The position numbers and the translations under genes are program-made. The notes beneath the pieces are model-generated. The model was given only the letters and a program-made list of their open reading frames with translations. It had not been told where the DNA came from and ran no database searches. 29,118 nucleotides of DNA, taken from IMG/VR virus record IMGVR_UViG_3300015615_000735, positions 62,001 to 91,118 of that record. One strand, 5' to 3'. This DNA is from an uncultured virus (IMG/VR IMGVR_UViG_3300015615_000735). Its lineage: Duplodnaviria; Heunggongvirae; Uroviricota; Caudoviricetes. Below, in pieces: positions 23,661-25,701 of this stretch; within the stretch, counting starts at the first letter, position 1, and each line of letters starts with the position of its first letter.

Positions 23661-24197
23661 TCAGCGGTCGAGAATCTGTTGGGCGTTGTCGATGCCGCGG
23701 TAGATCTCGCGGACCATCACGCGCTCGCACTTGAGATAGGCGTGATGCATGAACGGGTAGGGTCGCGAACCGGGGTGGTTCACGTAGCGAGCGAACATCC
23801 GGGTGCCGTTAGCGCCAATCCACGAGAGCACCGTGGCGCGTCGCGGGTAGATGACGTGAGGCCGAGTGCCTTCCTCGACGTACGAGGCGTACTCCATGCC
23901 AGCGCGAATCTCGCCGAACTGGGCGCCGTCGACGTCCGAAGGAAGGTCGGCCATGCTCGGCAGTCGATTGTTCGTCCCGCGCGAGGCACCCACGCTCGTC
24001 CGATTGCCCGTCAGCTTTCCGATGGTCGAGCGTTCAAGGTTGCCCGTTCGGTTGGTGTACGAGTGCAGCGCGCGGGCCTCAGCGGCGCCTTCCTGGACGC
24101 CTTGGGAGACGCCGCGGCGAGTGCCCGCGCGAATCGACGCGCGCACGCCTACCCACGCCTGGACGAGCGCGGATGCGTCTACTTCGCAGGTGAACAT
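23661..24197 (-). CDS. Neck protein, HK97 gp10-like
   Basis: RTGNLERS, EYASYVEEGTRPHVI, VNHPGSRPYPFM; 178 aa. Confidence 0.85.
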   Translation of the reverse strand: MFTCEVDASALVQAWVGVRASIRAGTRRGVSQGVQEGAAEARALHSYTNRTGNLERSTIGKLTGNRTSVGASRGTNNRLPSMADLPSDVDGAQFGEIRAGMEYASYVEEGTRPHVIYPRRATVLSWIGANGTRMFARYVNHPGSRPYPFMHHAYLKCERVMVREIYRGIDNAQQILDR

Positions 24198-24253
24198 GGG
24201 CCTCTAAAAGCTGGCCCCACGTGTTCCCGGGGAGGTTCGGGTGTGGGGCCTTG

Positions 24254-24327
24254 AGGACTCGGCAGGCATCGAACCTGCGCGCATCGGCTTAACAAGCCGC
24301 CGCTCTTACCGACTGAGCTACGAGTCC
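24254..24327 (-). tRNA. tRNA-Asn(GTT), atypical acceptor end
   Basis: GGACTCG/CGAGTCC acceptor, GCTC/GAGC D stem, loop TTGTTAA, GCAGG-TTCGATG-CCTGC T arm; G1-C72, U73; no encoded CCA. Confidence 0.9.
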
Positions 24328-24333
24328 AAGTGT

Positions 24334-24464
24334 TGGGAACGATGGTGGCTTGTGGTTCGTGGTAGGGGTAGCGACCCGATGTCAGCCTGAGCCAACACCT
24401 GCCCCGTGTGGAGGCACCAGAACACTCGCCACATGCTAGCTAGGCATCCACCACCATCGGCCCA
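24334..24464 (-). ncRNA. Unassigned ~130-nt multibranched RNA between two tRNAs
   Basis: Closing stem CGATGGTGG/CCACCATCG (extended by TGGG/CCCA); internal hairpin GGTGTTGGC-TCAG-GCTGACATC whose three G-U pairs form only on the minus strand. Confidence 0.55.
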
Positions 24465-24465
24465 G

Positions 24466-24550
24466 TGGGTCAGGAAGGAGTCGCACTTTCGGGGCTCCGA
24501 AGAGCACGTGGTTTACAGCCACGCCCGGCCCTCTACCGGACTACCAACCC
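24466..24550 (-). tRNA. tRNA-Tyr(GTA), non-canonical D and T arms
   Basis: GGGTTGG/CTGACCC-A73; CGTGG-CTGTAAA-CCACG anticodon arm; long variable arm GCTC-TTCG-GAGC; T loop TGCGACT. Confidence 0.8.
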
Positions 24551-24614
24551 AGGTGCCCGCCTTGCGACGGGAGGCGAGAGCACAGCGCCGTCGAGCGGCG
24601 ATCGCATCTCGCTG

Positions 24615-24682
24615 CCGACCTCCGTGGAATCGAACCACGCCCTACGGATTTGGAATCCGATTGGCCCCATGGCCTGCGGCCG
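24615..24682 (-). tRNA. tRNA-Trp(CCA)-like, reduced D arm (68 nt)
   Basis: CGGA-TTCCAAA-TCCG anticodon arm; CGTGG-TTCGATT-CCACG T arm; acceptor CGGCCGC/GAGGTCG (one mismatch), G73; D hairpin GGCC-ATGG-GGCC. Confidence 0.7.
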
Positions 24683-24755
24683 AATGCACACGGCGGATTA
24701 CAAGTTCGCCGTGCCCACCACTTCGGGATTTCAGGTCCCGCCGTGGCAAGACAGT

Positions 24756-24881
24756 CTAAGAACGAATCTTCGGCCAGGTCACCACCACCGGCCAGAGGAG
24801 CACGACGAGCGGCCCTTCTTTGCGGGGAGTCGGCTCGACGAGAGCCAATTCGGGATGCGGGATGTGTGGGCGAGGGGTCAT
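24756..24881 (-). CDS. 41-aa micro-ORF
   Basis: Hand-translated MTPRPHIPHPELALVEPTPRKEGPLVVLLWPVVVTWPKIRS; AAAGG RBS right after the upstream stop. Confidence 0.4.
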   Translation of the reverse strand: MTPRPHIPHPELALVEPTPRKEGPLVVLLWPVVVTWPKIRS

Positions 24882-25230: not shown

Positions 25231-25701
25231 TCAAAAGTCGCCCATCTTCTCCCAGAACCCACCTTCGCGGCAGACCGTGGAAGTCGACGCGGTCCCGCCC
25301 GACGTAGTCGAGTCGAACAGCGCGCCGCCGTGGTTCGCAGCAGGATCGGGAGGCGACTCGCCGAGCATCGTCTTGCCGTCGCGGAGCCGGCAGAGGTCCT
25401 TCTCCGCCTGCTCCATGAGCTTGATCCAATCGAGCCCGATGACCGCCTCGGGGTGACGCTGCGCCGCGTACGCGACTGCGACGTCCAGGTCGAGACGAGT
25501 CACCTCGCGCGGCACTTGGCCGACATCGAAGGGCAAGAGCCCGAGCGGGGCGAGGTACGAATTGACCTTCGCCTCCGCGTCTTCGAGCAACTGCTCCACG
25601 GCGTCGTTGTCGCTGTTGCCTGAGTGGTTGTCGTCGTAGATCCGCTTGAGAGACTTCGGCGAGATGCGCTTCTCGAGCGCTTGTTTTTTCGTTCGCGCCA
25701 T
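25231..25701 (-). CDS. Head-tail connector, Mu gp36 (DUF1320)-like
   Basis: LEDAEAKVNSYL...LP..VP..VTRL..DVAV...EQAEKDL.RLRDGK. Confidence 0.85.
   Translation of the reverse strand: MARTKKQALEKRISPKSLKRIYDDNHSGNSDNDAVEQLLEDAEAKVNSYLAPLGLLPFDVGQVPREVTRLDLDVAVAYAAQRHPEAVIGLDWIKLMEQAEKDLCRLRDGKTMLGESPPDPAANHGGALFDSTTSGGTASTSTVCREGGFWEKMGDF

Follow-up and report, generated by a model that had tools for sequence, protein, structure and literature searches.

Introduction

Two groups of small RNAs are the closest described systems to the element that we report here. One consists of the bacterial Y RNAs, represented by YrlA (RF02553), YrlB (RF02565) and Yrn1 and Yrn2 of Deinococcus (RF01053). Chen et al. 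2014 give the 5′ motif of YrlA as GNCGAAN0-1G, and the available text of that article also lists G7, G8, C9, G11 and A12 of Yrn1 as the residues protected by Rsr, and describes Yrn2 as being made with tRNA-Asp (PMC4201824). Across bacteria, conservation is limited to the 5′ strand of the Y RNA, according to the accessible portion of bioRxiv 10.1101/312249, while the primary Ro60 site is described in the accessible portion of PMC4030889 as a bulged C. Phages can also encode such RNAs. In the available text of PMC12135203, Yrl1 and Yrl2 of the Thermus phage phiLo, which are carried together with a phage Ro60, are proposed to dampen the host PNPase. The other group is RNA C and RNA D of phage T4 (rnaC and rnaD, NC_000866), non-tRNA RNAs of 119-139 nt that are packed directly between tRNA genes and whose roles are called unknown in the available text of PMC3014915. 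The literature that we searched, mainly its openly readable share, holds nothing on the element described below or on Y-like RNAs in phages without Ro60.

The element, which we call unit X, lies between two tRNA genes of an uncultured phage. It resembles the bacterial Y RNAs in its size (80-130 nt in that group), in the long stem formed by its 5′ and 3′ ends, which is a general Y-RNA feature, in a 5′ GGCCGA and in a possible bulged C. Like Yrn2 it is tRNA-associated, and it would presumably be co-transcribed with its neighbours. It differs in having no Ro60 gene nearby or anywhere in the phage record, where a Y RNA would be expected to lie within about 4 kb of one, and in having no T or D arm and no Rfam score; its 5′ motif reads GCCGATGG, one mismatch away from GNCGAAN0-1G. 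It shares with the phiLo RNAs a phage-encoded, Y-like character, but in phiLo, as far as the available text goes, Ro60 sits beside the RNAs. The T4 RNAs match it in size and setting. There is no overall similarity between the sequences, however, rnaC has a T-arm where unit X has none, and unit X is optional among close sisters.

The tRNA island

The virus record is a complete myovirus genome of 91,118 bases with terminal repeats and 66% GC. The stretch that was analysed, hereafter the window, is its final 29 kb (29,118 nucleotides) and carries head, neck, sheath and baseplate genes, every one of them encoded by the minus strand. The head-tail adaptor and neck genes flank an island of tRNA-Trp, tRNA-Tyr and tRNA-Asn, and unit X fills the gap between tRNA-Tyr and tRNA-Asn from border to border. 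At the same adaptor-neck site most relatives have a small RNA island or none. The features of the locus are:

25231..25701, minus strand: head-tail adaptor gene (Mu gp36-like), the upstream border of the island
24614..24682, minus strand: tRNA-Trp(CCA)-like gene whose D arm is short; sisters swap this slot as well
24465..24550, minus strand: tRNA-Tyr(GTA), with an atypical T-loop, conserved in sisters; unit X begins directly behind it
24334..24464, minus strand: unit X, about 130 nt, with paired ends (4 bp, a 1x2 loop, 9-10 bp) and two alternative interior folds
24330..24461, no strand assigned: interval swapped for 107 other letters in sisters from two studies (runs X1 and X7), the flanking tRNAs being kept
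24454..24463, minus strand: 5′ decamer GGGCCGATGG, identical to the 5′ strand with which Y RNAs encoded next to Ro60 genes bind Ro60
24451..24459, minus strand: 5′ arm of the 9-bp closing stem
24340..24348, minus strand: 3′ arm of the 9-bp closing stem
24385..24445, minus strand: rod of fold B, 24445-24433 with 24398-24385, 13 bp with one bulge
24378..24399, minus strand: hairpin of 9 bp, three of them G-U, formed in fold A (about half of the ensemble)
24366..24377, minus strand: small hairpin GGGT-CGCT-ACCC, common to folds A and B, with an 11-12 nt run equal to the 5′ hairpin of T4 rnaD
24318..24434, minus strand: 38-codon reading frame through unit X into tRNA-Asn, probably incidental
24253..24327, minus strand: tRNA-Asn(GTT), which begins 6 bases past unit X
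24205..24252, minus strand: stable hairpin and short T run that close the island, without a score in the consensus terminator scan
23661..24197, minus strand: neck or tail-completion gene, the downstream border of the island

A consensus scan found neither a sigma-70 promoter nor a terminator. There is also no antisense target of unit X in the phage, where the best matches were of 12 nt or 19/21 (E≥0.14). The tRNA-Tyr gene is unusual in its own right: its T-loop, TGCGACT, is non-standard, Rfam misses the gene, and it is near-invariant in sisters while its neighbours change.

Exchange among sister phages

Part of the region is contained in about 20-22 public DNA runs, and four of these, from four studies, were compared. 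No run listed for the region is an RNA data set, which carries no information on expression. Contigs from runs X1 and X7 join position 24329 to position 24462 across 107 other letters, and in X1 the neighbouring tRNA-Tyr shows no differences over 90 bases. In run X13 a contig links positions 24279 and 24462 through 176 letters of other sequence, so that part of tRNA-Asn goes too; in run X18 the place of unit X is outside the coverage. The inserts of 107 and 176 letters may be diverged homologs of unit X or unrelated units. A further sister locus, L225, has the same tRNA-Tyr (93/94 bases) with the closing hairpin immediately after it, and has neither unit X nor tRNA-Asn. In each of the four sister lineages seen, unit X is either missing or exchanged for other sequence.

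The borders of exchange in the sisters therefore match the ends of the stem of unit X, and the unit is dispensable: it is an optional cassette whose borders are defined by the swaps themselves. This illustrates that exact exchanges of RNA units between near-identical phages can mark the borders of a unit without any transcript. The turnover does not imply a lack of function, because whole tRNAs in the island are swapped in the same way; the tRNA-Trp slot, for example, is similarly replaced in X1 by 165 letters. The anatomy fits a discrete RNA that would be released by processing of the flanking tRNAs, and its swaps or absence in sisters support this. We consider that unit X is probably a processed, dispensable small RNA.

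Folding

A preliminary description of this DNA had placed a multibranched RNA between tRNA-Tyr and tRNA-Asn, and the motifs that it quoted are present there on the minus strand, which gives the more stable fold of the two strands (-55.7 kcal/mol; plus strand, -49.5 kcal/mol). Its perfect 9-bp closing stem pairs 24451-24459 with 24340-24348 at a probability of 0.88-0.92, which falls to 0.53 within a Tyr-X-Asn precursor. Such a stem was matched by none of 3000 dinucleotide shuffles and by 26 of 18,198 genome windows. The element had also been said to lack a T-loop and not to be a tRNA; we find no tRNA call and no T-loop at unit X.

The proposed interior fared less well. The ATGC/GCAT helix has a pair probability of 0.04-0.05 and the GTGG/CCAC (taken as 24432-24429 with 24411-24408) and GGGG/CCCC arms of 0.00, and the best fold that holds all the proposed helices reaches -45.9 kcal/mol, compared with -55.1 kcal/mol when unconstrained. 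The 9-bp hairpin with G-U pairs does form, in about half of the ensemble, but is equalled by 420 of 3000 shuffles. The ensemble is split between a multibranch that contains this hairpin and a rod (1004 and 995 of 2000 samples, respectively), and the only helix common to both inner folds is the small hairpin at 24366-24377. Taken whole, the RNA did not separate from shuffled sequence, a check that had been suggested for the fold: its z-score is -1.40 and 20 of 200 shuffles were equally good. This is a weak test here, because the real tRNA-Tyr next door itself reaches only -1.46.

Searches for relatives

Rfam matched only tRNAs in the whole window and the island at E≤10 and left unit X unmatched; the remainder of the genome and L225 gave nothing at the gathering score. 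The homologs for which the preliminary description proposed a search did not appear in the collections that we covered, and covariation is unobtainable because no homolog was found. Of the three outcomes that this description had named as counting against the RNA, two were observed in a weak form: a fold that does not outdo shuffled sequence, and a lack of homologs. Pattern searches of viral sequences gave 52 loci with the closing stem, none of them near a tRNA or similar to unit X, 24 loci with the Ro-type ends and five with two inner motifs, again with no homolog. The small hairpin was found at 116 loci or more, with no homolog of unit X among the matches listed. A metagenome scan by the anticodon pattern of tRNA-Tyr gave at least 120 loci, the pattern being too common, and no sister among the matches listed.

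With blastn, unit X had four short matches in phages, none of them a homolog, and no match in plasmids. Among bacterial genomes around G001 (E≤0.1), matches of 19-44 nt were found in 17 of 201 genomes from the family, one of 401 from the order and one of 401 from the phylum. Seven of the 19 short matches of one set were inspected, together with the single match of another, and none was like unit X. Readings of the unit as SRP, 6S, c4, HDV-like or hammerhead RNA were dropped, since Rfam gave no score for them and inspection by eye revealed no core that would fit.

Resemblance to Y RNAs

The preliminary description called the likeness of the 5′ end to a Y-RNA stem a weak hint. For the first ten bases it is better than that, but the Y-family models and the second motif fail. 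We built a 10-base profile from 50 Y-RNA 5′ strands at 21 Ro60 loci of the candidate host family (see below), and the 5′ decamer of unit X ranks fifth among 182,216 positions of the phage under it. Its score is reached by none of 522 tRNA starts and by 24 of 138 phage Y elements, while GGRYCG alone begins 29 of the 522 tRNAs. Among Ro60-linked elements GGGCCGATG is the second commonest start (17/153). None of 39 other inter-tRNA spacers has both a Y motif and a closing stem.

The bulged C is less clear. The 3′ strand of unit X offers one G opposite two C's, so that two G-U pairs allow a helix with a bulged C to be drawn; eight sites in the genome pass this single-G test, and unit X has the longest continuation of them. 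In the free RNA this register has a probability of 0.00 and costs 4.4 kcal/mol, and a 1x2 loop forms there instead.

The closest family is a set of RNAs of the form GGGCCGA-N8-GGTTAYC...YTYGYCC, found in Polyangiaceae and in many phages, of which the first ten bases of unit X are a common variant. Their position, among tRNAs, and their anatomy mark them as Y RNAs, and most lie under the Rfam cut-offs. One Ro60-linked member has 14 of its first 15 bases as in unit X, and some members have free-form, non-tRNA multi-hairpin interiors. Measured against this family, unit X has a degenerate second motif, no internal loop after the Ro helix, a 3′ strand that is one change off, and no score with either of two models that we built from it (R1 from 14 short and R2 from 13 longer host RNAs). 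Where GGTTAYC is expected 15 bases after the first G, unit X has GGATGCC at an offset of 14 with two mismatches. Among 217 candidates from Ro60 loci, 152 have at most one mismatch and seven have two, as does 4.5% of the background, and this comparison is therefore about neutral. A 22-base profile gives unit X 1.4 against a host median of 26. In 101 of 131 family members an internal loop follows two pairs beyond the bulged C; in unit X the pairing continues for nine, a length that none of the 131 attains.

The covariance models agree. Y_RNA (RF00019), YrlB (RF02565) and the Deinococcus Y RNA (RF01053) had no matches at unit X at E≤10, and nor did YrlA (RF02553) at E≤10 over the 91-kb genome. 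Genuine RNAs of the YrlA type from this class reach 55-63 bits. R1 and R2 did not report unit X at E≤10, while chance sites in the phage genome reach 15 bits and R2 gives held-out members up to 65 bits. R2 also found nothing in five related phage records, two groups of which were incomplete. Since these family tests failed, unit X falls outside YrlA, YrlB and the GGGCCGA-N8-GGTTAYC family, and at best works like a Y RNA. Two other candidates were rejected. A rotated YrlA order (T arm, closed acceptor stem, D arm) survives only as remnants (TTC and TGGCTCAG) and folds at -20.3 against -55.1 kcal/mol, and a further Ro-like mini-hairpin, located at 24744-24776 with 10.9 bits (E 5.4), shares sequence with a short reading frame and was taken as chance.

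Ro60 and the candidate host

The complete phage record has no match to the TROVE profile of Ro60, for which the control was positive in two of 14 genomes, and five related records have none either. Capsid relatives occur in four genome bins, assigned to Actinomycetota (the sister L225), Polyangiaceae (43%), Proteobacteria and one further bacterium, and the neck gene matches two of 383 genomes in the family of that Polyangiaceae bin. We use this family as the putative working host, an assignment drawn from these matches. L225, the close sister, is a 29-kb contig within an Actinomycetota genome bin; either it was misbinned or it hints at what the host is.

In a sample of 151 genomes from the candidate host family, 36 exceed the TROVE cut-off. 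By our own reading, the domain is complete in 21 of the 36, and the other 15 match only through a short C-terminal segment. The Ro60 genes of the family lie mostly within tRNA arrays, among RNAs with a GGGYCG-N9-GGTTAHC module and a partner strand such as CTTGCCC. In viruses, a GGGCCGA-type module has Ro60 within 2 kb at 47 of 70 loci and not at the other 23.

In the Polyangiaceae-family Ro60 loci (L238-L258), the Ro60 genes lie in large tRNA arrays. Many of the RNAs around them measure 120-125 nt and are shaped like tRNAs, with ordinary acceptor ends but with a Ro60 stem inserted after the D arm, which amounts to YrlA in un-rotated order and is called tRNA by Rfam. At several of these loci a Ro-type hairpin overlaps the ribosome-binding site of Ro60, which suggests autoregulation. 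The viral loci L322-L391 form a large phage Y-RNA family, GGGCCGA-N8-GGTTAYC...CTTGCCC, mostly hairpins of 50-70 nt, although L382 and L371 have non-tRNA multi-hairpin interiors.

Proposed role

The likelihoods that we attach to this and the other readings are judgements and were not computed. As a mechanism we tentatively favour unit X as a ligand or decoy for the Ro60 of the host, the likeliest of the roles considered though short of an even chance. It would be transcribed with the late head-to-tail genes, and would be freed by 3′ trimming of tRNA-Tyr and an RNase P cut before tRNA-Asn. The paired ends would then act as a diverged stem of Y-RNA type; as Ro60 is lacking from the phage, the partner would be the Ro60/Rsr of the host. 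Unit X could serve as a gate or decoy by which Rsr, and PNPase with it, is kept off phage RNA, or alternatively as a tether through its free-form interior. The expected effect is that Rsr-PNPase decay would be dampened or redirected, along the lines suggested for phiLo with its own Ro60.

A broader version, which we think unlikely, makes unit X a self-contained Y-RNA mimic of novel architecture, with a Ro60-docking stem and a two-state, non-tRNA interior in an exchangeable slot, capturing the Ro60-based RNA-decay and repair machinery of the host. With the other RNAs of the sisters, the island would then be a fast-changing kit of RNA counter-defences. If unit X does bind the host Ro60, it would show that a phage can redirect host RNA quality control by RNA alone, and would offer an easy way into the function of bacterial Y RNAs. 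If it does not, it is another uncatalogued small RNA of a phage tRNA cluster, without relatives.

Alternative explanations

It is possible, if somewhat doubtful, that unit X is a stable tRNA-cluster RNA like RNA C and RNA D of T4, cut from the tRNA precursor, protected by its end stem and acting on a host or phage protein through the GUCGCUA inner loop or a fold switch, so that its Y-like start is chance. Its setting and size are those of rnaC (139 nt) and rnaD (119 nt), it fails every Y-RNA model, and its small hairpin has 11-12 consecutive bases in common with the 5′ hairpin of rnaD, a local score matched by one of 500 shuffles; the same hairpin occurs, at 55 of the 116 loci among the matches listed, in a family of phage RNAs not yet catalogued. 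The match to rnaD is one short run, however, which was found late after many comparisons and beyond which nothing aligns, and rnaC gave no match, with 500 of 500 shuffles equally good. The rank of the decamer would also be left unexplained. We regard as improbable the simpler view that unit X is an unselected or decaying spacer acquired with the island, whose end stem merely aids the folding and separation of the tRNAs. The z-score of -1.4, the want of a defined inner fold, the failure to find homologs in the collections that we covered and the absence or replacement in four sister lineages all speak for a spacer, and a 9-bp closing stem is also present in two of 39 other inter-tRNA spacers of 90-200 nt. 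Yet the stem is far beyond that of shuffled sequence and unit X occupies the whole slot, while the turnover, being shared with whole tRNAs, is no sign of lost function.

A relic of a tRNA or a decoy for tRNA ends seems decidedly improbable. Here the ends would be an old acceptor stem with discriminator A, or a worn-out YrlA, that soaks up enzymes which cut or process tRNAs. The 3′ end, CCC-A, is acceptor-like and TGGCTCAG resembles tRNA positions 8-15; moreover, the island has atypical tRNAs and anticodon-like hairpins, and the phage encodes an RNA ligase. Against this, there is no T-loop, neither ARAGORN at a lowered threshold nor the Rfam tRNA model finds anything at unit X, the cloverleaf in YrlA order folds at -20.3 compared with -55.1 kcal/mol, and no tRNA start of the 522 scores as unit X does. 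That the locus is a gene for a 38-codon peptide (24434-24318) is hard to credit at all. The frame has an ATG start and a G-rich run upstream, but it ends inside tRNA-Asn, it starts in paired sequence, and sisters replace it at the borders of the RNA unit.

Other RNA elements and genes

Several further elements were seen in the course of this work. The RNA ligase has an OB domain (G000:C1:24060-25154, minus strand) and is followed by an AAA_28 kinase-like gene (G000:C1:23473-24063, minus strand); the two may work together in RNA repair. Two hairpins with anticodon-like loops, one of them readable as Thr-UGU, stand at the island's head (24683-24750, minus strand) and are possible anticodon decoys or tRNA remnants. 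The gap between tRNA-Trp and tRNA-Tyr (24551-24613, minus strand) contains two short stem-loop units in a slot that is replaced or skipped in sisters.

A relative with 68% capsid identity (L058, 7988-8072; also L054, L056 and L057) has a different, conserved closed-stem element of about 85 nt at the same adaptor-neck site. In L060 (3505-3775; also L061-L063) a tRNA-like unit of about 115 nt, with an acceptor and T arm and an expanded middle, lies between the capsid and adaptor genes together with a tRNA-Trp; its 3′ end has ten bases (CCACCATCGT) in common with the 3′ end of unit X. Finally, freshwater phages carry at L405 (658-761) and 54 more loci a promoter-driven RNA of about 85 nt that lies between two genes named by eye from their translations, one Hsp20-like and the other nuclease-like. 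It has three hairpins and a likely pseudoknot and no Rfam match, and it has an GGGTCGCTACC hairpin and a CTGAG loop in common with T4 rnaD.
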